Assembly: GCF_004365815.1 (NCBI RefSeq)
Contig: NZ_SODD01000034.1
Coordinates: 1 to 29,340, forward strand
Origin: Breznakia blatticola
Lineage (GTDB): Bacteria > Bacillota_I > Bacilli_A > Erysipelotrichales > Erysipelotrichaceae
Direction: 5' to 3'
DNA: 29,340 bases
The position numbers and the translations under genes are program-made. How positions within the stretch are numbered: position 1 is the stretch's first letter; the number at the start of each line of letters is the position of its first letter. The notes under the pieces are model-generated. The model ran no database searches. It saw only the letters and a list, made by a program, of their open reading frames with translations, and had not been told where the DNA came from. Positions 103 to 21,917 of this stretch are shown here, piece after piece.

Positions 103-303
103 ATGAAATTTCGTGAACTAGATACGGTAAAAGTGACAAAGGATATTAATGGTAAAGTAAAAAAAGATATGGTAGGTGTTATTGTATATGCGACGGAAGG
201 TTATGATATTTATGAAGTAGAATTCTTAGATATAGAAGGTTATACGATAGATTTACAAACTATAAATGAAGAAAATCTTGAGTTAATATCAAATAATGAA
301 TAA
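103..303 (+). CDS. DUF4926-like small protein (66 aa)
   Basis: ORF with SD GGAGAG (91-96) 6 nt before the ATG. The pattern ELDtV..tkDi....kkdmvGvIV.....yDiYEVEFlD.eGyTi matches my recollection of the DUF4926 family. No search was run. Confidence 0.65.
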   Translation: MKFRELDTVKVTKDINGKVKKDMVGVIVYATEGYDIYEVEFLDIEGYTIDLQTINEENLELISNNE

Positions 304-939: not shown

Positions 940-1024
940 GTGATTAAAATGTTTCAATGATTTCCAAATTCTTTTAAGAAACATATTCAAGAAAGGAAAA
1001 TAAAAATAGAGCACAAAAAATATA

Positions 1025-1054
1025 TAGAAAATGACATATATTATATGTTAAAAT
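1025..1054 (+). promoter_or_regulatory. Candidate sigma-A promoter for the RHS cassette
   Basis: Extended -10 TGtTAAAAT (1046-1054). Weak -35 TAGAAA (1025-1030) with an 18-nt spacer. About 80 nt upstream of the TTG start at 1134. Confidence 0.35.
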
Positions 1055-1133
1055 GTGTATGTTATGTGTGCGAAGTTAAGAAACAAAACGTTTGTTTTTT
1101 TACTTTGCACTTTTTTTATAAAGGGGGAACATT

Positions 1134-1589
1134 TTGAGAGAGATTTGGAACAAGGTACTATTTACCGTAAAGACAAAAGAAGTTAAGGTAAAGCATGTAG
1201 TTGTTGTGTTGTTGCTACTGTTATTACTTCTGCTTTTGCAACAATGTACAAGTGTTAAGGATGATGATCAAAAGAAAGCAGATACCATTGAAAATGTATG
1301 TGAATTAGCATCAATTAATACAGATGAGTTACAAATATTGTTGGAACGTAGCGATCTATGTAGTGAAAAATGGTACGAAGATTATGAAGACTATGAAGAT
1401 GCATTAGTTGAACAGCATAAACTGCTTAAGAAACATGAGGGGAAAAAACAAAAACAATTGTATAAAAAACAAGAAGTGTTGATTAAAGCAGTTAAAGAAT
1501 TCAAAGAAAAAGAAACTGAGGCAAGTGTGAATGCTTTAGAAAAAGCATATGAAGAATATCGAACATATGCAAAAAGTGTGTGTAAATAA
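1134..1589 (+). CDS. Membrane-anchored (signal-anchor or atypical lipoprotein) coiled-coil protein, 151 aa, function unknown
   Basis: TTG start with strong SD AAGGGGG (1121-1127) and 6-nt spacing. Basic N-region KTKEVKVKH, then V4L10, then QQC. The C-terminal ~110 aa are charged and heptad-like (EKWYEDYEDYEDALVEQHKLLKKHEGKKQKQLYKKQEVLIKAVKEFKEKE). It ends 11 nt (or 32 nt to ATG 1622) before the RHS gene, so co-transcription is likely. Confidence 0.7.
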   Translation: MREIWNKVLFTVKTKEVKVKHVVVVLLLLLLLLLLQQCTSVKDDDQKKADTIENVCELASINTDELQILLERSDLCSEKWYEDYEDYEDALVEQHKLLKKHEGKKQKQLYKKQEVLIKAVKEFKEKETEASVNALEKAYEEYRTYAKSVCK

Positions 1590-1600
1590 TTAAACATAGA

Positions 1601-4600
1601 ATGAAAAGGGAAAGAATAGACATGAGAAAGAAACTATTACCAGTATTTTTAGTGTGTCTGATGCTGTTACAAGTATCTGATACCGGGCTGCGTGTGTTAG
1701 CTGCGCAGTCAAATCGAATTACTCCAGGTGCAAGTTATGGAAGTATGTATCAAAAAGATATACAAAGAGAGATTGTTAATGTATATGATGCAAATGATGA
1801 TGCCCAGGAAGAAGCTGTAGTTACAAAGGAAGCAAGTAACTATGATTTAAGTGATCCATACGAATCGTATGAAGAGGTTGAAGACAAGCGTGAGATTAAT
1901 TCAAAAACGTATGAAATTCAAAAAGGCGTTTTCGTTAAGGAAACGTATTTTGAACCAATTCATAAAGAAGAAAATGGGAAACTAGTTGATATTGATGATC
2001 GATTAGAAAACGTAAATCGATCACGTTCAAATAAAGCAATTTATAAAAGTAAAGATGGATTGCTTGATGTACAAATTGATGGAAACAGTGTTCGTGTAAC
2101 AAATGAAGAAACAAGTGATTTGCAATGGAGTTTACCAGATGCAGATGTTTCACATTATAGTGTAAAAGAGAATGTAATTTTATTTACGAATGTATATAAA
2201 AACATCGATATGGAATATGTAATACGTTCAAATAAAGTATTTACTACGTTCTATATCAATGGACCTGTTGAAAAATCTACATTGGATTTTATTTTTACTA
2301 GTCAACATTTGACAAGTAAAGAGACAGACGATGGAGTTGTGTTTTATCGTAGTGATAATCCAGATCAAGATGTATATGTGTTTGCCAAGCCAACAATTCG
2401 AAGTGCAACAGAAGCGATTGGAAACAGTCAAATCACATATGAAAATGCACAGGATGGCGTACATGTATCATTGAGTTTAGATCAAACTTGGATTAATGAT
2501 AGTGCTCAAGTATATCCAATTGCTTTAAGCACAAGAGCGGCAAATCTTGAAGTATTGAATATTACATCTTGTTATGTGCGTAGTGAAACACCAAACTTTA
2601 GTTCAAGTCAATATAGTGATTTGTTTGTTGGATACGATAACGAGTTTTGGGCAGGTATTGGTGTACGAACTGGTGTTAACCGTTCATATTTTTACATCGA
2701 TAAACCAAATCTTGGAAACAACATGCGTGTTGAAAAGGCAAACTTAGAATTATTTAAAGAGCAAGATGGTATTGAGCAAGGTGTAAGTCACCTAATGGGA
2801 AAAAACATTGAAGCGTATGAATGTGCCAATGCAAATTTAAATACACTAACTTGGAATACCCAACCAACTATAGAGAAAAAACTATCAACAAATAATGTTG
2901 AAGGAGTTAAAAACAAATATTATAAATTTGATATTACAGGTTATGTTAGTAGTCGGTACAAAGGGATTGAAAAAACACTATTATTAAAGGCAGAAGATGA
3001 GTCAATTAACGCATTTGCGAATGTTTTTAATAGTGAAAGTACAGCAAGTCGTCCAAGAATTACGATTGAATATCGTGAAGATTATGATGTGGATCCAAAC
3101 CTTTCCATTGAAAATTTTGATCAAGAGCTACGTGTTGTTAGTAAACTAAATGATGGATTTAAAGCATTAAGTTTAGATGGTCTAATAAAACCATATGCAA
3201 CAGCTGTATTTAAATTACATGAAAAACAAGATGGTAACTCTACAGTTATTAATGAACTTCTTTCCATGAGTGTAGGAGGAGCATATTTTTCTCATCCAAT
3301 CGTATTTACAAACCCATATGGAAGTGGACATACAGTACAACCATCTTACAATGGAAATAAAGAGGGTCAAAACTATACAACAAATTATGTAAAGGCAGAA
3401 AGTATACCAAAATTTGATACTTTATACGAGTATGTTATGAAGGTTAAAAAAGATGGTGTAGAGAGTGCAAAAAGTATCACAACGGATGGATTTATCAAGT
3501 ATAAAGTTAAAAATGGAGATACATTACGTTCTATTGCTTCGTATTATGGAGTAAGTATTGATCAAATCAAACTGGATAATAATCAAAGTAGCAATAGTGT
3601 CTATGCTGGACAAGTATTATTTATCCGCTTTAAGAAAGATAATACCAAAGTACCAAAAGATGTTTATACACCACCACTACGTACGATTACGTATGAAGCT
3701 AAATATGTATATCGAGGACCACAATGTTATGGAACTTGTCCTATTGGGGATCCAATTACGACAACCAATGGAAACTTTTACTATGAAACAGAAGATTTCA
3801 CTTTAAAAGATTATGATGCATTTACTTTCCACCGTTACTACAACTCAACGGGAGAACAAGTTTCAAATATGTTTGGAAATGGGTTTACAAGTAATTTGGA
3901 ACAATATGTAACCTATGATGAAAATAAAAACATCTTATTTTTCAGAGGGGATGGGAAGATTCTTCAAATTGATAAAACCGCAAATGGATATACACCAAAA
4001 ACGACAGATCGTATTGAAATTGAAGTAAAACAAGATGAAGTTCAAATCTTTGATATTGAAACTGGAAGAACGTATGTATTTGATAGTTATGGAACACTTG
4101 TGACTATCATTGAAAAAACTGGACACAAAACGACTATTTCTTATGATGCATATGGTGCAATTCAAAGTATTCGTGTTGGTGAAAAGGAAATTAGTTTTAC
4201 CTACAATGAAAACAATTTAGTGCAAAGTATTCAATTACCAAATGGAAAAAGTGTAAGTTATACTTATGATGCAAAACGTAATTTAACATCATATACAAAT
4301 GTGTTAGGACACAAAGAAACATATAACTATGATGATAAGAATTTCATGCGTAGTATCATTGATAAAAATGGAAATACTATTGCCACAAATACCTATGATG
4401 ATGAAGGTAAAGTAAAAAGCCAAAAGGATGGAAAAGGTCAAGAAATGAAGTTTTCTTATACAAATAAGAAGACGGATATTACTCTAGCTGATAATACAAA
4501 AGTGACGTATGAACATGAAGACTTTAAAACAACGAAAGTTGCCTATGGAGATGGTTCAAGCAGTTCATATCGCTATGATACGTATGGCAATATTATTGAG

Positions 4601-7600
4601 AAAATCGATGAAGATCAAAATAAAACAACGTATACGTATGATAAACATGATTTACTTGAAATCGCATATCCAGATGGAACGACAGAAAGTTATACGTATA
4701 ATAGCGCACACCAAGTAACAAGTAAAACGGGTCGTGATGGTGGAGTAGAGTATTTTGCATATCAAGGAAATGATCTAGTAAAACATACGTTAGCAGATGG
4801 AACATTTACAACATATACGTATGATGCAAATCATCGTGTAGTAACAGAAACAAGTGCTACAGGTGCATCAAAGACATATACATATAGTGGAAATCAAATT
4901 GCCAGCATTACACATTCAAATGGTCTAGTTGAAAACTTTACGTATGATGCAAGTGGAAACGTGTTGAAAGAAAGTGATAACCAGGGTAAAAATCAAACGT
5001 ATTTGTATAACGATAATAATCAAATGATTAAGAAAACGTATACGGATGGGACTTATGAAGAGTGGGGTTATGATGGTAATGGAAACATTACAAGTTATCG
5101 TGACCGCATTGGTGGAATCACTACAAATACATATGATAAAAACAATAATGTAATTGCTAGTAAAAAAGGAAGTCTAACAAATTCGAAAGTTTATGATAGT
5201 AATAACCAGTGTATCAAAGAAACAGATGCACAAGGAATTACAAAAACATATACCTATGATGCTAAACTTAGATTAATTAAGGAAAGTGATGGCTTAGGTA
5301 ATGAAATAAGTTATACGTATGATGCCTTAGACCATGTAATTAAAACGATTGATGTACGTGGACAAGAAAGTACAGATACATATGATCAAGATTTATTAAT
5401 CAAACATGTTGATGCTGCTGGATTAGAAACGACATATAGCTATGATGATAAAAACCGTGAAATCGAAAAAGCATATACCAATGGAACCAAAGAAAGTAAA
5501 GTATATACAGGTTTACTTTTAACTGAAGAAAGCGACATTCGTGGACAAAAAACAACGTATACGTATGATGCATATAGTCGTATCAAAACAAAGACTGTGA
5601 GTATTGGTGAGATTGAACATGTAACAACATATACCTACGATAGTAATAACAATATTACAAAAGAAGATGTAGATGGTGTGGTCACAACGTATGCGTATGA
5701 TGTGTACAATCGTAAGATCAAAGAAACAGATCCATTAGGATTCACGACTTCGTATACATATAACTTTGATGATGAAATCATTTCTACAACGGATGCATTA
5801 GGAAATACATCAACACAAACGTATGATGGTGAAGGAAATCTAATTAAAGAAACCGATAAAAATGGAAATACAGTAGAACATGTTTATAATGCACAAGGAT
5901 TTCTTGTTGCTGAAAAGGATGCTCTAGGAAATACAACAACGTATGCATACAACGAAAAAGGACAATGCATTACAGTTGTTGATCCATATGGATTTACAAC
6001 ATCATTTACATATAGCAAATACAATCAATTGCTTGATACATATCAAGAAGGTACATTAATTGAAAGTATTACATACAACAAATATGGGGATGTAAAAACA
6101 AAGAAAAATACAGAACTGAATGAAAGTTATACGTATGATCATTTTGGTCGACAAGTAACAAAAACAGATCAATATACACAACTACAAACAACAACAAGCT
6201 ATGATGTGTATGGAAATGTAACTAAAGAAGAAGATAGCAATGGAAGAAGTAGTTCTTTCACTTATGATGTATATAACCAAAAATTGACTGAAATCGATGC
6301 ATATGGTCGTACAACAAGCTATACATATGACCAACTTGGACAAGTTATTTCTACAACAAATGCACAAGGAACAACAAGTCAAGTGTACGACAAAAATGGA
6401 AATGTGATTGAAAGTATTTCACCGCTTGGTGTAAGTACAACATACGCATACAACAAACGTAATGAGAAAATCAAAGAAGTCATTGGTGATAAAGAATTAG
6501 CATATAGTTATGATGGACTGGGTCAATTAACGAAGACGACAGATGTAAAACGCAAGAGTGAAACGACGACAAGTTATGATGCAAATGGAAATGTGACTAA
6601 AGAAGTGGATGCATTAGGTAATGCAATCACTTACACATACGATGCAAAAAACCAAAAAGTATCAACAACTGATGCATTAGGAAATACCAGCAAAACGGAA
6701 TATGATGCTAACGGAAATGTAACTAAGGAAATCGATGCACTAGGAAATACAAAACAAAGTTCATATAATGCATACCAACAGCTAGAAAAAGAAGTAGATG
6801 CACGTGGGTTTGAAACGCTATATAGTTATGATGATGCACTACGTTTAGTTAAGGTAGAAGATGCTATTGGTGGATCTATTACATACATATATAATGATGC
6901 AAATAAAGTCAGCAAAGAAACAAATAGTGAAGGTTTTAGTAAGACATTTGTATACGATGACTATGGTCAAATCATTGAAGAAAGTGACTATAATGGTGTC
7001 ATTACAAAACGAAGTTATGATGTACTAGGAAATGTTGTAAAAGAAACAACAGCAAATAAAACAACAACTTCTGTTTATGATGAAAAAGGAAATCATGTAA
7101 AAACAAGTGTAAATGATGTCGTGCAAGAACAATTTACCTACAATGATTACAATCAAGTTGCAACGAAAAAAGATGGAAATTCAAATGTTACAACTTACAC
7201 ATATGATACATATGGAAATGTTAGTACTGAAGATGCTGCAGGTTATAAAACAGCATATACATACAATGTATATGGAGAACTTCTTGAGAAAGTAGAAAAC
7301 GATACATACAAAGAAAGTTACGTATATGATGCAAAAAACCAACTTACTGAAACAAAGGTAAATGGTAAAACTGCACAAACAAAAACATACGATGCAAATG
7401 GGAATATAATCCAAGAAGCAGAGTATGGAAAAGTGATCGAAACACAATATGATGCATGCAATCGTCCATCTGCATATCTTGTAGAATATGAAGGAAGTAT
7501 GCAAGTAATTCAAAGTGTTACATATGATGAAAGTGGTAATGCAATTACAATTACAGATGCTAATGGTAATACAGAACAAAGAACATTTGATGCAAATGGA

Positions 7601-10273
7601 AATGAAACTAGCTTTATAAACAAGCGAGGTATCAAACAACTATTTGCTTATGATACACTTGGTCAACTAGAAAAAGCTGAAAATGCACAAGGACGTGTTG
7701 TTAGATATACGTATGATGGAAATGGAAATGCACTTACAAAAACTGTAGGAACAAAAATGGCAGTATATACATATGATGATTTCAATCAATGTACCTATGA
7801 GAAAAATGAATATGGATATGTAGAGAAAACAAAATATGATGTATTTGGTAATAAAGTTGAAGAAACAAAACCAGATGGCACAATTATTACATATGCTTAT
7901 GACAACAATAACAACCAGATTCAAAAGAATAGTCAAACCTTCAGTTATGATAAACGAAACAACCTAATTAAAGCAGAAGGTGCAAATGGCACAATCACAT
8001 ATACATATGATGCATTTGACCAAATGCTAACTTCAACAAATGCAAACAAAGAAACTGTAAGTTATGCTTACAATAAAGATAAGCAATTATCTAAAATGAC
8101 TTACGCAAATAAAGACGTCGTTACTTATAGTTATAAAGATGGTATGTTGTCTACTGTGAAAAAGAACGATGCAACAATTGCAACGTATTCATATAACAAT
8201 AGAGGTGAGCTTGTTGATCTTGTGCAAGGAAATATGCAATCAACATTTGCTTATGACAAATTAGGAAATGTAATAAAGCAAGATATCTACAAGGATAAGA
8301 AACTCGAACAAAGCCGTACGTATGCATATGATGCAAATGATAATGTCGTTAAAGAAGTTATTGATGGCAAAGAAAATAACTATGTGTATAATGATGCAGA
8401 TGAGCTAAGTGAAAGTAGTAAATATGTAGATGGAAAATTAGTTAAGACATCTTACACATACGATATGTATGGAAACAAACGTGTTTCAAGTAATGATGAA
8501 GGTGTTAAAACGTATACATATAATGATAAAAACCAATTAGAAAGTGTTGAAAGTACAAAAGGTGTAAGTCGTTACTACTACAACGATAATGGAAACCTTA
8601 CAAGTAAAGTGAATTCTGATGGTAGTAAAGAAGTGTATACATATGATGAATTTGACCATTTAGTTGAACATCAAAAAGGTGATTATATCTATACCTTTGC
8701 ATATGATGCACAAGGAGATAAAATCAGTGAAAGTAAACAAGATGTACGAACATATCAAAAACAAGTATGGTATGATTATGAAGGAGTCATCGATGTTACT
8801 GCTTCAAGTGATACAAAAGTTAAAAATACATTTGATGGACTACGCCAACAAGTAAAAACAAAAGAAGCAAATGGTGGTGTCTGTACATACCAAGGAACAA
8901 GTTCATATACTGCAAGCTACAAAAAAGATGTAGAAGTGACAGATTTCGTTCTTGATAAGAATGTAGAGTATACACAAATTCTAGAAACAAATGGAAATGG
9001 TAATGTGTATGGATTATCCATCTTGGAAGAAGATGGAACTACATTAGTAGCAAGTTTAAATGACAGTATTGCATTACAAGTAAAAAACAACAAAGTTACG
9101 AAACTAACGTACAGTGATTATGGTAAAACAAGTAATATAGCACAAAGTCATGCATACAATGGAGAGTACCAACAAGAAACAGGACTCATCTATTTACGTG
9201 CTAGATACTATGATCCAACTATCGGAAACTTTATCCAAATCGATCGCAACTACAAAGGTGAAAACACAGATGTAGCAACTCAAAACCGTTACAACTATGC
9301 ATTAAGTAATCCTTACAAGTATGTGGATAGAGATGGGAATAAAGCAAAGAAAAAGAAGAAACAAAGTGTAGTAAGTGCTGTTGTTGGTAGCGTGAAAAAT
9401 GTAGTGTCTAGTATTAAAACGAATATTGTTCAGTCGACAACGATGGTGATGCGGAGCGAAACCATGTATAATTTGATGGATTTAGTAGTACAAATTTCAC
9501 CATATTTTACTTCAGAAATGGCGAAGGTAACTACATTATTAGCAGTAACTCCGGCAACTACAATAGGTTTAGTGATGTATGGTGCTGTAGCAACTCCGGC
9601 AAGTTTGATTTGTGGTATAGAAAAAGCAATAAGATTTACTGAAATGACGCCTACGCAGCAACAAGCATATGTGAATGCTTGGGAGCATCAATTGGGTGGT
9701 AGACTGTATGCTGGTCCTTACGTAGCGGATAAAATGATGAATTTATACTACGAAAGTATGGGATATACAACAAGAATACCAGAAAAAGCACAAGTAAAAG
9801 AGGATAAAGCAATAAGCTACGTTTCTGAAAATAGTTCGACAGGATCAATGGTTGCGGCAGCACAAGAACAGCAACAACCAAAACAACCGAAAAAAGATGA
9901 TGACGATGATAAGAAGAAAGATAAAAATAAAAATTCAGATAAGGGTTCGAATAGTAATATAAAAGGGAATGATGTTACATATAATCAAAGATCTGTAGAT
10001 AAAGCTTTTGGTAAACATGGAAGTGATTTTGGTAATTACCCTGATGGAAGTAAAGGTAGTATTCAACAGTATCAAAATGATATATCAAAATTCATTGATA
10101 GTCCTAATAATATTCAAAAACCAGGAACCTGGTGGGGTTCTCAAGGAACACATATATATAATCCAACTACAAATCAATGGGTATTTATTAATGCTGATGG
10201 TACGTTTAATACAGGATTCAAGCTCTCAGCAGATCAGATGAAGTATTTAATAGAGACAGGAGTGGTAAAATAA
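1601..10273 (+). CDS. Secreted LysM-domain RHS/YD-repeat polymorphic toxin with a C-terminal colicin-D-like nuclease domain (2,890 aa)
   Basis: The more probable start is ATG 1622 (SD-like AAAGGGAAAG at 1605-1614), giving a Sec-type signal MRKKLLPVFLVCLMLLQV..RVLA|AQ. LysM-like segment at 3500-3625. Plug-like motif GDPITTTNGNFYYETEDF from ~3737, followed by dozens of YD repeats. RHS core end is YLRARYYDPTIGNFIQIDRNY..NRYNYALSNPYKYVDRDGN (9194-9340). A 310-aa variable tail follows. Confidence 0.95.
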   Translation: MKRERIDMRKKLLPVFLVCLMLLQVSDTGLRVLAAQSNRITPGASYGSMYQKDIQREIVNVYDANDDAQEEAVVTKEASNYDLSDPYESYEEVEDKREINSKTYEIQKGVFVKETYFEPIHKEENGKLVDIDDRLENVNRSRSNKAIYKSKDGLLDVQIDGNSVRVTNEETSDLQWSLPDADVSHYSVKENVILFTNVYKNIDMEYVIRSNKVFTTFYINGPVEKSTLDFIFTSQHLTSKETDDGVVFYRSDNPDQDVYVFAKPTIRSATEAIGNSQITYENAQDGVHVSLSLDQTWINDSAQVYPIALSTRAANLEVLNITSCYVRSETPNFSSSQYSDLFVGYDNEFWAGIGVRTGVNRSYFYIDKPNLGNNMRVEKANLELFKEQDGIEQGVSHLMGKNIEAYECANANLNTLTWNTQPTIEKKLSTNNVEGVKNKYYKFDITGYVSSRYKGIEKTLLLKAEDESINAFANVFNSESTASRPRITIEYREDYDVDPNLSIENFDQELRVVSKLNDGFKALSLDGLIKPYATAVFKLHEKQDGNSTVINELLSMSVGGAYFSHPIVFTNPYGSGHTVQPSYNGNKEGQNYTTNYVKAESIPKFDTLYEYVMKVKKDGVESAKSITTDGFIKYKVKNGDTLRSIASYYGVSIDQIKLDNNQSSNSVYAGQVLFIRFKKDNTKVPKDVYTPPLRTITYEAKYVYRGPQCYGTCPIGDPITTTNGNFYYETEDFTLKDYDAFTFHRYYNSTGEQVSNMFGNGFTSNLEQYVTYDENKNILFFRGDGKILQIDKTANGYTPKTTDRIEIEVKQDEVQIFDIETGRTYVFDSYGTLVTIIEKTGHKTTISYDAYGAIQSIRVGEKEISFTYNENNLVQSIQLPNGKSVSYTYDAKRNLTSYTNVLGHKETYNYDDKNFMRSIIDKNGNTIATNTYDDEGKVKSQKDGKGQEMKFSYTNKKTDITLADNTKVTYEHEDFKTTKVAYGDGSSSSYRYDTYGNIIEKIDEDQNKTTYTYDKHDLLEIAYPDGTTESYTYNSAHQVTSKTGRDGGVEYFAYQGNDLVKHTLADGTFTTYTYDANHRVVTETSATGASKTYTYSGNQIASITHSNGLVENFTYDASGNVLKESDNQGKNQTYLYNDNNQMIKKTYTDGTYEEWGYDGNGNITSYRDRIGGITTNTYDKNNNVIASKKGSLTNSKVYDSNNQCIKETDAQGITKTYTYDAKLRLIKESDGLGNEISYTYDALDHVIKTIDVRGQESTDTYDQDLLIKHVDAAGLETTYSYDDKNREIEKAYTNGTKESKVYTGLLLTEESDIRGQKTTYTYDAYSRIKTKTVSIGEIEHVTTYTYDSNNNITKEDVDGVVTTYAYDVYNRKIKETDPLGFTTSYTYNFDDEIISTTDALGNTSTQTYDGEGNLIKETDKNGNTVEHVYNAQGFLVAEKDALGNTTTYAYNEKGQCITVVDPYGFTTSFTYSKYNQLLDTYQEGTLIESITYNKYGDVKTKKNTELNESYTYDHFGRQVTKTDQYTQLQTTTSYDVYGNVTKEEDSNGRSSSFTYDVYNQKLTEIDAYGRTTSYTYDQLGQVISTTNAQGTTSQVYDKNGNVIESISPLGVSTTYAYNKRNEKIKEVIGDKELAYSYDGLGQLTKTTDVKRKSETTTSYDANGNVTKEVDALGNAITYTYDAKNQKVSTTDALGNTSKTEYDANGNVTKEIDALGNTKQSSYNAYQQLEKEVDARGFETLYSYDDALRLVKVEDAIGGSITYIYNDANKVSKETNSEGFSKTFVYDDYGQIIEESDYNGVITKRSYDVLGNVVKETTANKTTTSVYDEKGNHVKTSVNDVVQEQFTYNDYNQVATKKDGNSNVTTYTYDTYGNVSTEDAAGYKTAYTYNVYGELLEKVENDTYKESYVYDAKNQLTETKVNGKTAQTKTYDANGNIIQEAEYGKVIETQYDACNRPSAYLVEYEGSMQVIQSVTYDESGNAITITDANGNTEQRTFDANGNETSFINKRGIKQLFAYDTLGQLEKAENAQGRVVRYTYDGNGNALTKTVGTKMAVYTYDDFNQCTYEKNEYGYVEKTKYDVFGNKVEETKPDGTIITYAYDNNNNQIQKNSQTFSYDKRNNLIKAEGANGTITYTYDAFDQMLTSTNANKETVSYAYNKDKQLSKMTYANKDVVTYSYKDGMLSTVKKNDATIATYSYNNRGELVDLVQGNMQSTFAYDKLGNVIKQDIYKDKKLEQSRTYAYDANDNVVKEVIDGKENNYVYNDADELSESSKYVDGKLVKTSYTYDMYGNKRVSSNDEGVKTYTYNDKNQLESVESTKGVSRYYYNDNGNLTSKVNSDGSKEVYTYDEFDHLVEHQKGDYIYTFAYDAQGDKISESKQDVRTYQKQVWYDYEGVIDVTASSDTKVKNTFDGLRQQVKTKEANGGVCTYQGTSSYTASYKKDVEVTDFVLDKNVEYTQILETNGNGNVYGLSILEEDGTTLVASLNDSIALQVKNNKVTKLTYSDYGKTSNIAQSHAYNGEYQQETGLIYLRARYYDPTIGNFIQIDRNYKGENTDVATQNRYNYALSNPYKYVDRDGNKAKKKKKQSVVSAVVGSVKNVVSSIKTNIVQSTTMVMRSETMYNLMDLVVQISPYFTSEMAKVTTLLAVTPATTIGLVMYGAVATPASLICGIEKAIRFTEMTPTQQQAYVNAWEHQLGGRLYAGPYVADKMMNLYYESMGYTTRIPEKAQVKEDKAISYVSENSSTGSMVAAAQEQQQPKQPKKDDDDDKKKDKNKNSDKGSNSNIKGNDVTYNQRSVDKAFGKHGSDFGNYPDGSKGSIQQYQNDISKFIDSPNNIQKPGTWWGSQGTHIYNPTTNQWVFINADGTFNTGFKLSADQMKYLIETGVVK
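2560..3080 (+). other. N-terminal surface/carbohydrate-binding-like domain of the RHS protein (DNRLRE/CBM96-like, tentative)
   Basis: The segment YVRSETPNF..SDLFVGYDN....RSYFYIDKPNLG...VEKANLELF...LNTLTWNTQP...PRITIEY resembles my memory of DNRLRE-domain surface proteins. A DDRLEN motif lies at 1994-2011. Not verified by HMM. Confidence 0.35.
3500..3625 (+). other. LysM peptidoglycan-binding domain within the RHS protein
   Basis: YKVKNGDTLRSIASYYGVSIDQIKLDNNQSSNSVYAGQVLFI fits the LysM consensus (Y.V..GDTL..IA..YgvsvdqL...N.l.....l..GQ.L.I). Confidence 0.8.
3737..9340 (+). repeat. RHS shell: tandem degenerate YD repeats plus the RHS-associated core
   Basis: The unit ..(Y/F)xYDxxGNxxxxxDxxGxxxx(Y/F).. 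recurs throughout, e.g. YTYDAKRNLTSYTN, YRYDTYGNIIEKID, YTYDANHRVVTETS, TSYDANGNVTKEVDALGN. The region is terminated by the YYDPTIGNF...VDRDGN core. Confidence 0.9.
9341..9976 (+). other. Pre-toxin part of the RHS C-terminal tail: Lys-rich start, hydrophobic/helical module, low-complexity linker
   Basis: KAKKKKKQ sits directly after the predicted cleavage motif. The stretch SVVSAVVGSVKNVV...VTTLLAVTPATTIGLVMYGAVATPASLICGI (about 9527-9620) is long enough for membrane-interacting helices. The linker AAAQEQQQPKQPKKDDDDDKKKDKNKNSDKGSNSN spans about 9854-9958. Confidence 0.6.
9977..10270 (+). other. Colicin-D-like (BECR-fold tRNase type) toxin domain
   Basis: TYNQRSVDKAFGKHGSDFGNYPDGSKGSIQQYQNDISKFIDSPNNIQKPGTWWGSQGTHIYNPTTNQWVFINADGTFNTGFKLSADQMKYLIETGVVK. 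The spacing of KH..DFG, GT(W/Y).G, (Y/F).NP.T and G.F.(S/T)G(F/W)KLS..Q is what I remember for colicin D / Colicin_D-family CT domains. Needs an HMM or structure check. Confidence 0.6.
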
Positions 10274-10722
10274 TGGGAGTATATATATTGTCTGTGATGA
10301 CAAAAGAAATAGTGGAATCTACTAAAGTTTCTTTGATACAAAAAAGAATTCAATTGATATATCCTAGAAATGAAATTAATTATAGTCAATATAATTATAA
10401 TGATAGAAACCATAAAGAATTAGATTTTGATATTACTGAAATTTATTTTAATAAAGATAAAATAGATGAGGAGATTAGCTTGTTAATTAAGGCAATTAAA
10501 GAGATATTTTGCATCTTAGAATCTGATTGTGAAATTATTGGTGGTTTCAATGACACTGAAAATGCTATCATGCAATATGAGAAAGATAAAGAAAACAATT
10601 ATATGAATTGGGGGTTATTTGCGACTAAAAATCCTATCTCAAAATCAAATGTTTATTACGAAAAAGACGGGTTATATATATACCATAGTTTTAAATATGA
10701 TAGTATGGGAGTAGTTTTTTAG
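10273..10722 (+). CDS. Candidate cognate immunity protein (149 aa, no recognisable family)
   Basis: The ATG overlaps the toxin stop codon (TAATG at 10271-10275). SD AGGAG lies about 11 nt upstream, inside the toxin gene. No signal peptide or TM segment. Visibly more AT-rich than its neighbours. Position is typical of RHS immunity genes. Confidence 0.65.
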   Translation: MGVYILSVMTKEIVESTKVSLIQKRIQLIYPRNEINYSQYNYNDRNHKELDFDITEIYFNKDKIDEEISLLIKAIKEIFCILESDCEIIGGFNDTENAIMQYEKDKENNYMNWGLFATKNPISKSNVYYEKDGLYIYHSFKYDSMGVVF

Positions 10723-10879: not shown

Positions 10880-10919
10880 AAACAGTACTAACAAATTAGA
10901 CAAAGTTAGTACTGTTTTT
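10880..10919. terminator. Rho-independent terminator closing the RHS cassette, possibly bidirectional with rarA
   Basis: Perfect 13-bp stem AAACAGTACTAAC (10880-10892) / GTTAGTACTGTTT (10905-10917), 12-nt loop, then a T-run. An A-rich 5' flank would supply a U-tract on the opposite strand. Confidence 0.8.
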
Positions 10920-11039
10920 ATGTGTTATTTAATTTTACATATTGCTATAGAAAAGTGTTTAACTCCAATAAAACAAGTGTATATTTGAATTGCTGTACCA
11001 ATTATGGATATTGTTAGTTTTTTGTGTGTAATATTCGTA

Positions 11040-12293
11040 CTATCTCTTTAGTTTAGCTAAATTGTTTGTACGTTTTGTTTGTTTTAATTTTTTCCAATTT
11101 TCAGCAAGTGCACGTTCGTACTGTGAGTTAAGACTTGGTGTATAAAAAGATACGTTTTTTAGTGCGTCCGGTAAATATTGGATTTTATCCACAAGATCAA
11201 GTCTACCATAGTCATATTTGTCTTCATCTTTCATACCAACTGGGGTTAAACGTAAATAACCGGGTACTGGATATGCTTGATCTTTTAGATATGGTTTTAC
11301 TGCATCAATGGCAACTTCTGAACTTTTACTTTTTGGTGAAAGACATAAGTCAATGATTGTATGTGCCAAAGGAATGCGACCTTCAGGAAATCCAACACGT
11401 TTGGCTGCATCAATTGCATTGATACAACGAGCGACAGCTTGTGGATTACCAAAACCTACATCTTCATACGCAGTTACAAGTAAACGTCGCTCAATGGATT
11501 CTAAGTCACCAATTTCGATTAGTATCGACAAATAATATAATGCAGCATCAACATCACTTCCACGAATAGATTTTTGGAATGCACTGAGCAAGTCGTAATG
11601 ATAATCTCCATCACTGTCACTTGCAACATTTGGTGTAAAACTATAAGCTTCAACTGTTTCCTTATCAATTGCATTTGTGGCTGTTGCACACAACTCCAAT
11701 AGGTTTAATGCATAACGGATATCGCCATTAGCTAGACGTGCAATGCTAGTGAGTGCTTCATCATCTGCTTTAACTTGATCATCAATGCCTTTAGGGGAGC
11801 GTAGTGCGCGTGATAAAGCGGTCTTGATATCTTGTTCATCTAAAGATTTTACTTCAAATAGATGTGTTCTTGAACGTATGGCAGGGTTAATAGAAAATAG
11901 TGGATTGGCAGTCGTTGCTCCAATCATGATGATACTTCCATTCTCGATATGTGGAAGTAGTAAATCTTGCTTATCTTTATTTAAACGATGTACCTCATCA
12001 ACAATGACAACTAAACCTGGGAAAAACTTAGCTTCTTCAAAAATGATGGTTAAGTCTTTTTTATTTCCGGTTACAGCATTGAAGTTGCGGTATTTTACAC
12101 CCATTTCATTAGCTAATACACTTGCTAGTGTCGTCTTTCCAGTTCCAGGAGGACCATAAAAAATCATCGAAAAGAGTTGTTTCTGTTCGACCATTTTACG
12201 TAATATTTGATTCTTTCCAATTAAGTGTTGTTGCCCAACAACTTCATCTAGTGTTGTTGGACGCATACGGAAAGCGAGTGGTTGTTTATTCAT
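11040..12293 (-). CDS. rarA: Replication-associated recombination protein A (AAA+ ATPase RarA/MgsA)
   Basis: PLAFRMRPTTLDEVVGQQHLIG, Walker A GPPGTGKTT, Walker B VVIVDEVHR, and a MgsA C-terminal helical domain. 417 aa is a typical length. Confidence 0.93.
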   Translation of the reverse strand: MNKQPLAFRMRPTTLDEVVGQQHLIGKNQILRKMVEQKQLFSMIFYGPPGTGKTTLASVLANEMGVKYRNFNAVTGNKKDLTIIFEEAKFFPGLVVIVDEVHRLNKDKQDLLLPHIENGSIIMIGATTANPLFSINPAIRSRTHLFEVKSLDEQDIKTALSRALRSPKGIDDQVKADDEALTSIARLANGDIRYALNLLELCATATNAIDKETVEAYSFTPNVASDSDGDYHYDLLSAFQKSIRGSDVDAALYYLSILIEIGDLESIERRLLVTAYEDVGFGNPQAVARCINAIDAAKRVGFPEGRIPLAHTIIDLCLSPKSKSSEVAIDAVKPYLKDQAYPVPGYLRLTPVGMKDEDKYDYGRLDLVDKIQYLPDALKNVSFYTPSLNSQYERALAENWKKLKQTKRTNNLAKLKR

Positions 12294-12299
12294 ACTCTT

Positions 12300-12308
12300 A
12301 TTTTACCA
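12300..12308 (-). promoter_or_regulatory. Extended -10 element (TGgTAAAAT) immediately upstream of the rarA ATG
   Basis: Minus strand reads TGG TAAAAT aagagt ATG. The -10 ends 6 nt before the A of the start codon, and no correctly spaced SD is present. Confidence 0.4.
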
Positions 12309-12310
12309 CA

Positions 12311-12871
12311 CTAGAAAAATAAGTGCTCGATGAGTATTTTACTTCCAATAAGAATGAGAATTACTCCACCAGCAACTTCAGCATACGTATGAAGTAAAGA
12401 ACCCACAAATCGACCGATGTATCCACTAAGAAAAGATAGTGCAAATGTCACAAGTCCAATAATGATACATGCAAACAGTATATCTACTTCAAAGAAGGCG
12501 AAACTGACACCAACAGCAAGTGCGTCAATACTCGTAGCTATACCTAGTAATAAAATATCTTTTACTTTTATTTCCAGTTCACAAGATAAGTCTTGTTCAC
12601 CAAAGGCTTCATAGATCATTTTGATACCGATAAACACAAGAAGGATAAATGCAATCCAGTGATCTAAAAAGGTAATAGAGCCTGTGAAGTTTACGCCAAC
12701 AGTGTATCCAATAAGTGGCATTATTCCTTGGAAAAAGCCAAAACTAATCGCATAGACTAGTGAAAATTTAATTGCGTTTTTCTTTGTGTAACACATTCCT
12801 TTTGCTAGTGAAACTGCACATGCATCCATTGCAAGTCCAATACTGGTTAATAAAATTGTTAGTATGCTCAT
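12311..12871 (-). CDS. mntP: Manganese efflux pump MntP
   Basis: MSILTILLTSIGLAMDACAVSLAKGM, a second DALAVG motif, and 6 predicted TM helices. SD AAGGAG (12881-12886 on the complement). Confidence 0.9.
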   Translation of the reverse strand: MSILTILLTSIGLAMDACAVSLAKGMCYTKKNAIKFSLVYAISFGFFQGIMPLIGYTVGVNFTGSITFLDHWIAFILLVFIGIKMIYEAFGEQDLSCELEIKVKDILLLGIATSIDALAVGVSFAFFEVDILFACIIIGLVTFALSFLSGYIGRFVGSLLHTYAEVAGGVILILIGSKILIEHLFF

Positions 12872-12892
12872 ATGTTGTACTCCTTTATGTGA

Positions 12893-13012
12893 GAGTAAAG
12901 AAAAGACTCATACGAAAAAAATCGTATAAGTCTCATTTTTTACAATTAGCCAGGCTTTCGCCATTATGTTGACTAAAACACTTACAAAAGTAAGATAACT
13001 ACTCCCTTATGA
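12893..13012 (-). promoter_or_regulatory. yybP-ykoY (Mn2+) riboswitch with a terminator expression platform
   Basis: Minus-strand RNA reads CAUAAGGGAGUAG (core at 13008-12999) ... UAGUCAACAUAAUGGCGAAAGCCUGGC (GAAA-capped hairpin) ... terminator GAGACUUAUACGA-U7-UCGUAUGAGUCU (12934-12904) + UUUCUUU. The 5' AUAAG can pair with CUUAU in the terminator 5' arm, a P1-versus-terminator competition. It lies directly upstream of mntP, the canonical regulated gene. Confidence 0.75.
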
Positions 13013-13019
13013 CTTGCTC

Positions 13020-13047
13020 ATTATAGCACAAGGGTGTTGCTTTTGAA
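13020..13047 (-). promoter_or_regulatory. Promoter of the riboswitch-mntP unit
   Basis: Minus strand: TTCAAA (13047-13042), 16-nt spacer, TGcTATAAT (extended -10, TATAAT = 13025-13020). Confidence 0.55.
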
Positions 13048-13069
13048 AGGGGGGATTGCATGATATACT
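13043..13069 (+). promoter_or_regulatory. Candidate promoter of the oxidoreductase gene, back-to-back with the mntP promoter
   Basis: TTGAAA (13043-13048), 15-nt spacer, extended -10 TGaTATACT (13061-13069). SD AGGAGG at 13079-13084. Confidence 0.4.
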
Positions 13070-13092
13070 GTGAGTATTAGGAGGTGTAAATA

Positions 13093-14052
13093 ATGGACAC
13101 AAAATTACACTTTGGAATTGTGAGTACAGCAAGTATTGTTCCTCGCTTTGTTAAGGGGGTAAAAGCAAGTGCAAATAGTGAAGTCGTTGCAATTGCTTCC
13201 AGAGATCTACAAAAAGCACAGGAATATGCAAAAAACTTAGATATCGCAAAAGCATATGGAAGTTATGAAGCGTTGTTTCAAGATCAAGATATCAATATCA
13301 TTTACATCGCAACACCACATTTTGCACATGTTACGTATGCTAAAGCAGCATTAGAGGCAGGAAAACATGTTCTATGTGAAAAGCCAATTACTTTAACAAC
13401 TAGTGATGCAAAAGAACTTTTTGCACTGGCAAAGAAAAAAGGTTTGTTTTTAATGGAAGCGCAAAAAAGTGTGTTTCTACCGACGACGAATTATGTCAAA
13501 ACCTTGATCCAACAAAAGCGTTTGGGAAATCTGCGACATGTAAAGCTATCGTGTTTCTATCCATATATGGAAAATGAAAAAGCATGGATGCTTGATCCAA
13601 GTAAAGGTGGTGGCTCACTTTATGGGAGTGGGTCGTATGCAATTGAATATATGATGTACATATTAGATGCTACAGTCAAATCATATAAAGGAGAGCTTAC
13701 TTATACAACCTATGAGGTAGATGATATTAGTGATCTATCATTTCAAATAGGTGAGGTAGATTGTCGTTCCATTATTTCACGTACAACAAAATATCCAGAT
13801 GAAGCTAGATTTACATTTGATCAAGGCGAAGTGATTGTTCCATACTTCTGGAAAGCCCAAGAAGTGATTGTCTCTTCAAATGGTAAGATAGAAAACTATG
13901 ATTTTGCTAGTGACAGTGAATTTGTCTATGAAGTGATGCATGTAGAATCGTGCATCAATCAAGGGTTAACGTATAGTCCAATTATGACTCCAGAAATGAG
14001 TATATCGACAGTAGAAATGGTAGAACAGGTATATAAAGAGAATCGAAAATAA
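13093..14052 (+). CDS. Gfo/Idh/MocA family NAD(P)-dependent oxidoreductase
   Basis: N-terminal Rossmann segment HFGIVSTASIVPRF..., plus the family signature AGKHVLCEKP. 319 aa. Confidence 0.85.
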   Translation: MDTKLHFGIVSTASIVPRFVKGVKASANSEVVAIASRDLQKAQEYAKNLDIAKAYGSYEALFQDQDINIIYIATPHFAHVTYAKAALEAGKHVLCEKPITLTTSDAKELFALAKKKGLFLMEAQKSVFLPTTNYVKTLIQQKRLGNLRHVKLSCFYPYMENEKAWMLDPSKGGGSLYGSGSYAIEYMMYILDATVKSYKGELTYTTYEVDDISDLSFQIGEVDCRSIISRTTKYPDEARFTFDQGEVIVPYFWKAQEVIVSSNGKIENYDFASDSEFVYEVMHVESCINQGLTYSPIMTPEMSISTVEMVEQVYKENRK

Positions 14053-14101
14053 GCATGAATAAGCTATAATTTTGGGTAAATATGGGCAATCGCAAACTAG
14101 A

Positions 14102-14128
14102 TTAGCACTTCGCTTGATTAAGTGCTAA
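14102..14128 (+). promoter_or_regulatory. CIRCE element (HrcA operator)
   Basis: TTAGCACTT-N9-AAGTGCTAA is a perfect inverted repeat, against the consensus TTAGCACTC-N9-GAGTGCTAA. It overlaps the -35/spacer of the hsp20 promoter. Confidence 0.85.
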
Positions 14129-14141
14129 GCAGTGTTATAAT
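14114..14141 (+). promoter_or_regulatory. hsp20 promoter
   Basis: TTGATT (14114-14119), 16-nt spacer, TGtTATAAT (TATAAT = 14136-14141). Confidence 0.6.
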
Positions 14142-14197
14142 ACAAGTATCCTAGGAAAGGATAGTATAAATAGCATTAAGAAATGGAGGCGATGACT

Positions 14198-14611
14198 ATG
14201 AAATTACTACCAGGATTTAGTTTATTTGATGATGTGTTTGATGACAATTTCTTTAGACCTGTCAATAAGACATCAAGTTTTATGAAAACAGATATTCGTG
14301 AAGTTGATGGAAACTATGTATTGGATATGGAATTGCCAGGCTATAATAAGGAAGACATCAAAATCGCACTTAAGGATGGTTACTTGACAGTAACAGCTAC
14401 ACGCAATGATGACAAGGAAGACAAAGACGATAAAGGAAATGTAGTTCGTCGTGAACGTTTTGCAGGAACATGCACAAGAAGTTTCTATGTCTCAGATGCA
14501 GTTACTGAAGAAGACATTAAGGCCAAATATGATAATGGTGAGTTACATATAACTTTCCCAAAAGATAAACCAAAAGAAATTGCAGAAAGTAAACCAATTG
14601 CAATTGAATAA
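14198..14611 (+). CDS. hsp20: Hsp20/alpha-crystallin family small heat-shock protein
   Basis: Alpha-crystallin domain (DIREVDGNYVLDMELPGYNKEDIKIALKDGYLTVTA...RRERFAGTCTRSFYV....I.AKYDNGELHITFPK). ATG 14198 is preferred over 14183 because GGAGG (14185-14189) lies 8 nt upstream of it. Confidence 0.9.
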   Translation: MKLLPGFSLFDDVFDDNFFRPVNKTSSFMKTDIREVDGNYVLDMELPGYNKEDIKIALKDGYLTVTATRNDDKEDKDDKGNVVRRERFAGTCTRSFYVSDAVTEEDIKAKYDNGELHITFPKDKPKEIAESKPIAIE

Positions 14612-14617
14612 TGAATA

Positions 14618-14640
14618 GGGTGGACAAGTTCCACCTTTTC
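14618..14640 (+). terminator. Rho-independent terminator after hsp20
   Basis: GGGTGGA-caag-TTCCACC followed by TTTTCATTT. Confidence 0.7.
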
Positions 14641-14706
14641 ATTTGAATGCATGAAATGTATAAATACAGACAATCTATGGTATAACGTAAATAAGGATGG
14701 TGCTTT

Positions 14707-15231
14707 ATGGAAAGGTTAATAGAAACATTAAAAGAAAGATTTGAAAGTCATATGTATCGTCATCCACACACTTCGTGGAAAATGATTGAACCTTTACTTA
14801 CAGATGAAATTTTAGTAAGTTTACAAGCAATGGAAGCAAGTGGTGGTGAAATTGATGTAGTAGAAGATTTACCCAATGTAGGTTTGGCATATGTGGATAT
14901 GGTAACAGAAAGTCCAAAAGCAAGAGCAGGTGCTTGTTATGATGAAAAAGCGCGACTTGAACGAAAGAAAAATGCACCAAATACAAGCGTAGAAAAATTA
15001 GTTGATGACATGCAAGTAAACGTACTTGATGAAGATCAATATCGTTATTTACAAAGTATTGAAGATCTTGATTGCAAAACAAGTAGTTGGCTAAAAACAC
15101 CAGAAGCGATACGTGCACTTGGTGGAGCTTTATTTGGTGATAAACGTTACAATCATGTGTTTGTATATCATAATAGTGCGGATTCCTATTATTCTTCACG
15201 AGGATTTCGTACCTATAAACCACTTACATAG
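14707..15231 (+). CDS. DUF4256 family protein
   Basis: SD AGGATGGTG upstream. The C-terminal pattern KTSSWLKTPEAIRALGGALFGDKRYNHVFVYHNSADSYYSSRGFR matches my recollection of DUF4256 proteins. Function unknown. Confidence 0.65.
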   Translation: MERLIETLKERFESHMYRHPHTSWKMIEPLLTDEILVSLQAMEASGGEIDVVEDLPNVGLAYVDMVTESPKARAGACYDEKARLERKKNAPNTSVEKLVDDMQVNVLDEDQYRYLQSIEDLDCKTSSWLKTPEAIRALGGALFGDKRYNHVFVYHNSADSYYSSRGFRTYKPLT

Positions 15232-15257
15232 AAAAAGGAAGCGCGTGCTTCCTTTTT
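15232..15257. terminator. Bidirectional terminator between convergent DUF4256 and tyrA
   Basis: AAAAAGGAAGC-gcgt-GCTTCCTTTTT is a GC-rich 6-7 bp stem flanked by A5 and T5. Confidence 0.8.
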
Positions 15258-15258
15258 G

Positions 15259-16104
15259 CTATTTATCGAACTTTTTACGACGATTGGTACTTTGAATAAA
15301 CAGGTGTTTCATCGTTTCTTCATCATCGTTTTTCAATGCTTGTTTAAAGGTATCTAGGGAAGCTTCAAATGCTTCGATTTCCTCTAATAGAATATCCTTA
15401 TTGAATAAGAAGAGTTCGCTCCACATATCTTCATTGATTTTGGCGATTCTTGTTAGATCACGAAAGGAATCTCCAGTGTAATCAACCAACTTATCATGAT
15501 CGTGCGTATTCATTAAACTTACAGCAATTACATGGGTAAGTTGACTTAGAAATCCAATCATTCGATCATGCTCATCAATACTTAATAGTGAGATGTGATG
15601 AAACTTTAAGATATCAGCAACATCCATCATAGCATTGATCGCTTTTTCGCTATTGTCTACAGTTGGAACAATAATGAAGTTTGCTTGTCTGAATATCGAA
15701 GGATCTGCATGTTCAATTCCACTGACTTCTTTTCCAGCCATCGGGTGTGTTGAAATAAATTCGGCATCCACATCTTTTAAGATATATTGAATTGGCTTTA
15801 CAACATTACGCTTTACCCCTGCGATATCTGATACAATTGCACCTGGTTTAAAGTCATGCTTATGTTCTTGTATCCACTGAATCATCACTTTGGGATATAA
15901 ACATAGAATGACAATGTCAGCTTTATGTATATCGCTTGGTTGGATACTTCCTTCAGTGATGAAATTGTTCGCTAGCGCATAATCAATTGTTTCTTGACGT
16001 CTAGCAATCCCAATCACATGATATCCAGCATCATGTAGACCTTTGGCATAACTACCACCAAGTAAACCTAAACCAACAATTGCATATACAGGTTTATTTG
16101 ACAT
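15259..16104 (-). CDS. tyrA: Prephenate dehydrogenase
   Basis: NAD-binding IVGLGLLGGSYAKGL plus the HPMAG motif. ATG 16104 (MSNKPVYAIVG) is preferred, with GAGGTG upstream. It overlaps the aroA 3' end by 11 nt. The longer ORF-track start at 16125 is a GTG. Confidence 0.9.
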   Translation of the reverse strand: MSNKPVYAIVGLGLLGGSYAKGLHDAGYHVIGIARRQETIDYALANNFITEGSIQPSDIHKADIVILCLYPKVMIQWIQEHKHDFKPGAIVSDIAGVKRNVVKPIQYILKDVDAEFISTHPMAGKEVSGIEHADPSIFRQANFIIVPTVDNSEKAINAMMDVADILKFHHISLLSIDEHDRMIGFLSQLTHVIAVSLMNTHDHDKLVDYTGDSFRDLTRIAKINEDMWSELFLFNKDILLEEIEAFEASLDTFKQALKNDDEETMKHLFIQSTNRRKKFDK

Positions 16105-18384: not shown

Positions 18385-18397
18385 TTGTTTTGTCCCC

Positions 18398-21768: not shown

Positions 21769-21786
21769 AAAAAACTCTCCTTTAAT

Positions 21787-21911: not shown

Positions 21912-21917
21912 GCGTAC

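Follow-up and report, generated by a model that had tools for sequence, protein, structure and literature searches.

The DNA stretch analyzed here, 29,340 nucleotides (nt) of the Breznakia blatticola contig NZ_SODD01000034.1, referred to below as the window, carries at positions 1134-10722 three tightly packed open reading frames (ORFs) of the + strand, encoding a small protein of 151 amino acids (aa), a giant RHS protein of 2,883 or 2,890 aa, depending on the start codon, and a protein of 149 aa. We consider it quite probable that this cassette represents a WapA-type, Sec-exported and cell-wall-associated RHS polymorphic toxin system directed against neighboring bacteria. The original prediction, made from the letters of the window, was that of a Sec-type, LysM-bearing RHS toxin of the Bacillota, with a colicin D-type tail and an immunity gene downstream, and it is supported by the domains recognized and by a candidate signal peptide read by inspection. 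The toxin itself appears to be a fresh member of a known and recently characterized class, in an intact cassette, and the real novelty of the cassette, compared to the type system of Streptococcus suis, is in the first gene, whose product is unrelated to the accessory proteins of that type of locus.

Architecture of the RHS precursor

Gene 2 (1601-10273, + strand, as all the cassette features below) encodes an RHS/WapA-type polymorphic toxin precursor, in a frame of 2,890 codons that is unbroken at 32% G+C and is therefore not a chance ORF. The precursor comprises 2,890 aa if translated from the ATG at 1601 and 2,883 aa if translated from the ATG at 1622. The latter is the likely start, because, unlike the ATG at 1601, it is preceded by a GGGA-type ribosome-binding site (RBS), and because a gene caller independently picked position 1622 on the identical contig L006, for a product of 2,883 aa. 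Profile comparisons with Pfam and TIGRFAM returned all of the expected families (RHS_repeat, RHS core, LysM and Colicin_D), along with an additional one, CBM96. The N-terminus reads, by inspection, as a Sec-type signal peptide (1622-1702, residues 8-34; MRKKLLPVFLVCLMLLQVSDTGLRVLA, then AQ), with an initial MRKK, a 14-residue hydrophobic core (LLPVFLVCLMLLQV) and a VLA↓AQ cleavage site, the arrow marking the cut, and a basic and hydrophobic N-terminus of equivalent kind is found in the RHS proteins of all the relatives discussed below. The signal is followed by a carbohydrate-binding module of the CBM96/DNRLRE type (2570-3070, aa 324-490; 40.3 bits, above the cut-off of 26, in a scan of the N-terminal third alone), which in plasmid-encoded homologues carries the NCBI label DNRLRE domain-containing, and by the peptidoglycan-binding LysM domain (3500-3625, aa 634-675; E 6.5e-11), correctly recognized earlier as a wall-binding module. 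No match to the PAAR, VgrG, LXG or WXG families was found in family scans of the cassette proteins, in agreement with the original reading.

The remainder of the precursor has the layout of an encapsulating RHS protein. A DUF6531 plug (3746-3964, aa 716-788; E 2e-15) contains the autocleavage-type motif GD↓PITTTNGNF, with the predicted cut between residues 717 and 718, and leads into a shell of YD/RHS repeats of ~1,700 aa (3968-9109, aa ~790-2503; 23 stretches of PF05593, E 1.1e-165, and TIGR01643, E 1.6e-115). The shell is closed by the RHS repeat-associated core TIGR03696 (9110-9340, aa 2504-2580; 52.5 bits over aa 2504-2579, cut-off 32.5), which holds RARYYDPTIGNF, possesses the RxYDPxxGxF motif and ends in NPYKYVDRDGN, the predicted site of C-terminal autocleavage and the predicted recombination boundary. 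A second internal cleavage motif, like D1819↓VTSYVNDLY or TDPSG of S. suis, was looked for in the RHS protein and not found. The length assigned to the YD region previously, about 1,860 aa, stands, but the suggestion that it was unusually long does not, as this is normal for the family, the shells in two relatives, L002 and L003, measuring 1,867 and 1,865 aa.

Beyond the core, a pre-toxin region of ~210 residues (9341-9970, aa 2581-2790) starts with a run of lysines, continues with a segment of moderate hydrophobicity (highest at 2641-2670, with a Kyte-Doolittle maximum of 1.67 at 2646-2664) and a low-complexity linker rich in Q, K and D, and has no match in Pfam, PDB or plasmids. It is followed by a tRNase domain of the colicin D type, with the BECR fold (ColD; 9998-10246, aa 2800-2882), recognized by PF11429 with 42.8-44.7 bits against a cut-off of 25 and spanning profile positions 3-83 of 84. 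The last 94 residues of the RHS protein align with the entire tRNase domain of colicin D (1V74 and 1TFO; E ~7e-6), placing GKHGSDFG of the tail opposite YKHAGDFG of these structures, and the catalytic Lys-His pair is thus kept. The histidine of this pair is the catalytic residue, according to Graille et al. (2004), cited via the bioRxiv BECR paper.

Exchange of tails and immunity genes

When genomes were scanned with the first 720 aa of the RHS protein, the nearest relatives proved to be two Erysipelotrichales metagenome-assembled genomes, L002 and L003 (37-38% identity). In a three-way alignment, their RHS proteins share 32-65% of residues with that of the window along the shell, 59-65% in the final block of the core and just 11-29% directly after NPYKYVDRDGN, a boundary motif that is identical in four loci. 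The sequences that follow differ among the relatives: a GIY-YIG nuclease tail with a downstream Imm26/Imm51 fusion in L002, a tail and a downstream gene both of no known family in L003, an Ntox44 tail in L008, a divergent ColD tail with a downstream Imm64 gene in L012, and a DUF4279 gene downstream in L015. A conserved shell with swapped tails and immunity genes is the diagnostic pattern of polymorphic toxins, and a comparison of the locus across genomes, proposed as a check of the original reading, returned this pattern, with the core kept and with GIY-YIG/Imm51/Imm26, Ntox44 and ColD/Imm64 exchanged among the relatives.

The ColD domain is followed, with an overlap of 1 nt, by gene 3 (10273-10722), encoding the predicted cytoplasmic immunity protein of 149 aa. 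This protein matches no family in Pfam or NCBIfam. Its AlphaFold2 (AF2) model is a ferredoxin-like alpha/beta fold (predicted local distance difference test score, pLDDT, of 72.7), and a structure search with this model against PDB returned generic ferredoxin-like folds, with no specific neighbor and no match to ImmD. Among 5.8 billion proteins, only two homologues were found, and both are encoded directly 3' of ColD domains. One, in L018, is 73% identical, and its gene overlaps by 1 nt the stop codon of a gene for a 382-aa ColD protein (957-2554 for the two genes), of which the last 109 residues are 85% identical to the ColD domain of the window, the remainder being unrelated. The other, in L019, is 59% identical and is found 3' of a frame-shifted, decayed ColD remnant (503-1214 for remnant and homologue). 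Co-occurrence of the two in two unrelated contexts supports a cognate toxin/immunity pair, for which this presents, we believe, good comparative evidence. As a side observation, the 382-aa protein of L018 is orphan-like, beginning with MYVDKEY and possessing an unrelated hydrophobic N-terminal part. No match in plasmids was obtained with the DNA of the C-terminal domain plus immunity gene. If its predicted function is correct, the 149-aa protein adds a new immunity family for colicin D-type tRNases.

These contexts also document a module-level exchange, in which the ColD domain and the immunity gene appear to be transferred together, without the pre-toxin region. A similar modularity is seen in the relatives, where the last ~400 aa of the RHS proteins of L012 and L015 contain a common Gly-rich, hydrophobic pre-toxin domain, with the motif PKPxPKC(S/T)F...DPGA(F/L)FGD...ATGGQSLWVQA, followed by different toxin ends. 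The presence of a common domain in front of different toxins suggests that the pre-toxin region is a module of its own, and one that possibly serves in membrane entry.

A small membrane protein encoded upstream of the RHS gene

Gene 1 (1134-1589) encodes 151 aa from a TTG start, with an RBS (AAGGGGG, 1121-1127) 6 nt 5' of the TTG. The protein matches no family in Pfam or NCBIfam, and literature searches returned nothing on it, or on Erysipelotrichales RHS systems. In 1.84 billion representative sequences, a profile search identified 70 hits, with E <= 1e-10 for 48 of them and E <= 1e-30 for 23, and the family comprises ~70 clusters at 50% identity. One match to the profile, P0042, of 1,776 aa, was discarded as spurious, this being a repetitive coiled-coil protein; metagenomes were scanned with a 20-sequence alignment. 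In the members, of 120-216 aa, a basic N-terminus precedes a single, strongly hydrophobic helix, which is followed by a linker that varies and by ~100 conserved residues, featuring the motif N-x3-L-x2-L[LI]-x-R-x-D-L-C-S-E-x-W-[FY]-x-D, in which W80 is invariant, C76, along with Y142, being nearly so. The AF2 model (pLDDT 77.5) shows a transmembrane (TM) helix followed by a four-helix bundle. A lipoprotein was considered and rejected: a juxtamembrane cysteine is present in 44 of the 54 members, but it is part of a canonical lipobox in just one of the 44, and the protein is thus read as signal-anchored. It is likely an N-in/C-out protein, of which the N-terminus, short and basic, would be in the cytoplasm and the four-helix bundle outside. 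The label of an anchor protein, previously attached to gene 1, is unsupported.

What does characterize the family is its genomic position. In every one of the ten distinct loci for which downstream DNA is available (the window, L002, L003, L004, L005, L007, L008, L009, L012 and L015), a LysM-DUF6531-RHS gene, for a protein of 2,860-2,934 aa, is found directly 3' of gene 1, even as the identity of the gene 1 proteins drops to only 24-30% in the most distant loci. An overlap of the two genes, by 4-35 nt, is seen in L002, L009, L012 and L015 and is compatible with translational coupling. Variation in gene 1 tracks that of the conserved shell rather than that of the C-terminal domain. From such a position, the protein could be speculated to help export or fold the RHS protein, or to hold it at the membrane.

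A point of comparison is provided by S. suis, where export of WapA needs two upstream genes, for a class B sortase, SrtB, and for a "SecF-like" membrane protein (PMC12704120). Plasmids of Lactococcus raffinolactis (L016) and Streptococcus sp. (L017) encode a similar set, in which genes for a class B sortase and for a polytopic protein (208-221 aa) precede the RHS gene, and their products were used in the homology tests as stand-ins for the S. suis accessory proteins. The RHS protein of the window aligns with that of Lactococcus over residues 121-2613, at 27% identity. No homologues of the Lactococcus and Streptococcus SrtB and polytopic proteins were found by tblastn in the window or within 10 kb in the Erysipelotrichales-type loci L002-L015, no sortase Pfam families are present in the gene lists of the relatives' loci, and no gene 1 homologue was found by tblastn in L016 or L017. 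The scaffold is thus common to the two lineages, while the accessory equipment differs.

In some relatives, regulatory genes precede the gene 1/RHS pair. In L004 (723-4022), genes for a LytTR regulator, an AgrC-like kinase and a 46-aa peptide, along with agrB, are found directly upstream, the stop of agrB overlapping the start of the gene 1 homologue by 8 nt, and in L012 (7651-9620) and L013 (7284-9253) genes for a LytTR regulator and a kinase are in the same position. This suggests that the toxin may be under density-dependent control in these organisms. In L002, two direct repeats (TTGTCGTTTGTGGG) are present at 1910-1950, with starts 21 nt apart, ~100 nt 5' of the gene 1 homologue. A repeat spacing of ~21 nt is typical of binding sites of LytTR regulators; no LytTR gene is found near this locus.

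Proposed mechanism and alternative explanations

By analogy to WapA of S. suis and to the Rhs effectors of type VI secretion (T6SS), the precursor would cross the membrane via Sec and would be kept on the wall by its CBM96 and LysM domains. Self-cutting at D717↓P718 and after DRDGN-2580 would then leave a 310-aa C-terminal piece enclosed in the YD cocoon, and, on contact, this piece would enter a target cell, perhaps aided in crossing the membrane, as we speculate, by the hydrophobic segment of the pre-toxin region. The tRNase would cut the anticodon loops of tRNA, stopping translation, while in sibling cells the 149-aa protein would bind and block it. Gene 1, judged by synteny, may be a lineage-specific partner, in place of the sortase B and "SecF-like" pair of the streptococci. 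A more far-reaching proposal, that gene 1 encodes a dedicated export or assembly factor for RHS cocoons of 300 kDa in the Gram-positive envelope, characterized by the invariant DLCSExW motif, replacing sortase B and the "SecF-like" protein and co-transcribed in some lineages within an Agr-type operon, we offer as tentative, and on balance as rather doubtful.

A number of points weigh against the reading of the cassette as a complete and active toxin system with a dedicated partner. Each of the proposed activities, from secretion, wall binding and autocleavage to tRNase activity and immunity, is a prediction. The terminal core motif is DRDGN instead of the usual DPxG[LWH], and, with arginine in place of proline, cleavage at the C-terminal site is an assumption. 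No similarity of the 149-aa protein to ImmD, or to any of the Imm families, could be detected. What gene 1 does is deduced solely from synteny, Foldseek searches with its model returned generic four-helix bundles and de novo designs, with no informative neighbor, and its homology to the streptococcal "SecF-like" accessory protein had to be rejected, with hhalign probabilities of 0.7% and 0.1% against the polytopic proteins of Lactococcus and Streptococcus, respectively, and no cross-hits in tblastn. The locus was found in only one other sample (L001), 99.8% identical over 1.8 kb. Transcription presents a further difficulty. The single promoter originally proposed for the cassette does not stand out: the candidate sigma-70-type site (1025-1054, + strand; TAGAAA, an 18-nt spacer, TAAAAT and an upstream TG) is weak, matching at 9 of 12 positions, and the region contains no excess of promoter-like sites, with 69 versus 73.9 +/- 8 in shuffled sequence. 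Between this site and gene 1, directly 5' of the RBS, lies a terminator-like hairpin followed by U7 (1068-1118, + strand; -20 kcal/mol, z-score -3.45), which may have served to terminate an upstream gene, now decayed, or else may act as an attenuator in the leader of the toxin operon. Given its location, transcription must either start elsewhere or pass through an attenuator.

As to the alternatives, the one we take most seriously, while still considering it unlikely, accepts the toxin and its immunity protein but sees in gene 1 a self-protection factor against the shell, for example one masking the cell's own surface receptor, or a protein that senses at the membrane or regulates the operon. 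Co-variation with the shell is what would be expected of a shell-specific factor, a short tail, one TM helix and an outside bundle also fit small signaling or anti-sigma-like proteins, and the related loci are wired to the LytTR/Agr-type quorum-sensing genes described above. However, the cytoplasmic part, of ~20 residues, is too short for a known anti-sigma domain, the overlap with the RHS start in several loci is common for partners that have to be made along with a toxin, and the unrelated S. suis gene at the same position is needed for WapA export (PMC12704120).

Two further scenarios question the cassette as a whole, and both appear to be of much lower probability. In one, the cassette is not self-contained, and export proceeds via a specialized system encoded elsewhere, such as the type VII secretion system or a sortase B/SecF-like pair, on which WapA of S. 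suis depends (PMC12704120). The window is limited to 29 kb, with the contig end at a distance of 1.1 kb 5' of gene 1; yet the N-terminal signal is of the Sec type, LXG/WXG100 features were not found, and SrtB and polytopic proteins, which adjoin RHS in the Lactococcus and Streptococcus loci, have no homologue within 10 kb in loci of the Erysipelotrichales type. We consider this scenario very unlikely. Least probable of all, to a degree that we would hardly expect it to be true, is a eukaryotic host as the target, or a role mainly as a surface adhesin, as in Tc toxins and teneurins. It is true that glycans of a host or of fungi could be ligands of CBM96 and LysM, that YD shells also carry anti-eukaryotic toxins in Tc systems, and that some of the related contigs seem to be of gut type, by sample names alone. 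Against this, a colicin D-type tRNase together with a co-transferring gene that overlaps it by 1 nt is a signature of antibacterial toxin/immunity pairs, Imm51, Imm26 and Imm64 genes are present in the relatives, and the S. suis homologue kills bacteria (PMC12704120). An antibacterial, Sec-exported toxin of the WapA type thus remains the preferred explanation.

Gene layout and genomic neighborhood

The tight packing of the three genes, noted originally, is confirmed, with a gap of 32 nt between genes 1 and 2 for the start at 1622 (11 nt for the start at 1601) and with the shared nucleotide of genes 2 and 3, in TAATG. The strong terminator at the end of the cassette is also real: a hairpin at 10880-10919 (+ strand), with a 13-bp stem, a 12-nt loop and a U run, is found between the cassette and the convergent rarA, and the segment 10870-10930, which includes the hairpin and flanking pairs, folds with -23 kcal/mol (z-score -6.06). 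It was overlooked by the terminator scan because of its 12-nt loop. A scan of the whole window with Rfam returned no match.

On its 3' side, the cassette borders rarA/mgsA (11040-12293, - strand), as indicated earlier, and beyond it are mntP, an oxidoreductase gene, hsp20 and a complete pathway for aromatic amino acids. The aromatic amino acid biosynthesis cluster (15259-24381) is otherwise standard, but it includes one ORF of 423 aa (18398-19669, - strand) that combines the N-terminal domain of shikimate dehydrogenase with a shikimate kinase domain. The G+C content of 1000-10700 is 0.31-0.33, compared to 0.35-0.39 for the housekeeping genes at 11000-21000, which fits horizontal acquisition of the cassette, or merely the N-, K-, Y- and T-rich composition of the YD repeats. 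The chromosomal neighborhood of the cassette differs in each genome: while in the window the neighbor is rarA, it is clpB in L003 and L005, sugar utilization genes in L009, genes for a GGDEF protein and a two-component system along with thiC in L012, and GNAT and methylase genes in L008.

On the 5' side, the 830 nt at 304-1133 contain only ORFs of <30 aa, including traces of a frame-shifted helical reading frame at ~700-950 (...LEDELKGLQKDYETYFDMSDQMNPTSLSEDKKI...), and an exact 11-nt direct repeat (AATGCAGCTGG) is present at 401-411 and 427-437, with a spacing of 26 nt. A tblastn comparison of positions 1-1133 with all ORFs of L002-L005 detected no similarity to genes 5' of the relatives' cassettes and no Agr/LytTR remnants. 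Farther upstream, at 103-303 (+ strand) and 100 nt from the contig end, an ORF of 66 aa encodes a DUF4926 protein. DUF4926 has been proposed as a downstream immunity partner of DUF6883/BECR-Tox3 RNase toxins (2026 preprint), and the location of this ORF near the contig end suggests that a second toxin/immunity module may be present just outside the window. Exact-match look-ups with rarA and with the DUF4926 ORF returned no further contig.

Comparison with known systems

The WapA type, to which the cassette was originally likened, is represented in Bacillus subtilis by WapA/WapI, reportedly described by Koskiniemi and colleagues in 2013 as a system of contact-dependent inhibition (cited in PMC12704120). 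WapA of B. subtilis is, as predicted for the protein described here, a wall-associated RHS protein with a Sec signal and a polymorphic C-terminal tRNase, with the immunity gene directly downstream. However, it binds the wall by WapA wall-binding repeats and not by CBM96 and LysM, it is ~550 aa shorter than the protein described here, its toxin and immunity families are different, and the conserved upstream accessory gene is a feature of the cassette analyzed here. Colicin D shares with the cassette the tRNase domain, matched here above the threshold of PF11429 and with the Lys-His pair conserved, but the delivery vehicle is a colicin translocation/receptor scaffold in one case and an RHS shell in the other, and colicin D pairs with ImmD, which the 149-aa protein does not resemble, the ColD domain of L012 being paired with Imm64. 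The T6SS Rhs effectors (such as Rhs1 of Photorhabdus, TseI of Aeromonas and Tse5/RhsA of Pseudomonas) have in common with the protein of the window the DUF6531 plug, the YD cocoon and the core, along with the logic of double autocleavage and an encapsulated variable toxin. They differ in possessing a PAAR, prePAAR or VgrG-binding part and an Eag chaperone, in place of which the cassette features wall-binding domains and, as we infer, Sec export, and their shells are shorter, that of the window being roughly 1.5 times longer.

The closest match is WapA-CT1 of S. suis, a protein of 3,158 aa composed of a Sec signal, DNRLRE, LysM, DUF6531, Rhs and a C-terminal toxin (PMC12704120, December 2025), for which experiments have demonstrated the need for the signal sequence, the presence in the wall fraction, autocleavage at Edman-mapped sites, with fragments 1 and 2 covering residues 735-2716, and killing of competitors (PMC12704120). 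The order of domains is alike, from the Sec signal (a prediction in our case), DNRLRE/CBM96, LysM and DUF6531 through the long YD shell and the core to the pre-toxin region, the variable toxin and the downstream immunity gene, and both proteins belong to the same size class, of 2,900-3,160 aa. The N-terminal anchoring architecture, originally described as different from the WapA type, thus turns out to match the DNRLRE-LysM-DUF6531-Rhs arrangement of S. suis WapA-CT1 (PMC12704120). The N-terminal cut sites also correspond, E735↓PINLNTGNF in S. suis and D717↓PITTTNGNF here, with the common motif [ED]↓PI(N/T)xxxGNF. The C-terminal boundaries, in contrast, are TDPSGH and VDRDGN, respectively, no counterpart was found here to the second, TDPSG-type internal cleavage motif of S. 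suis, and the toxin is a NucB-like DNase in S. suis and a ColD-type tRNase here. The extra upstream gene, which had been pointed out as another departure, is indeed present, but it does not set the cassette apart, as an accessory membrane protein is encoded directly upstream in the S. suis type as well, though a non-homologous one: a polytopic "SecF-like" protein of ~210 aa there and a single-pass, four-helix-bundle protein of 151 aa here. A class B sortase gene is part of the S. suis type and is missing from the cassette.

The general question addressed by such comparisons is how a folded RHS cocoon of ~300 kDa exits from a Gram-positive cell and delivers its cargo. S. suis (2025) presents the sole experimental system of this architecture, and it relies on two accessory genes. 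The sister lineage, the gut-type Erysipelotrichales, appears to maintain the same scaffold along with an unrelated accessory protein, and comparing the two lineages could separate the needs of the scaffold itself from those that are lineage-specific.

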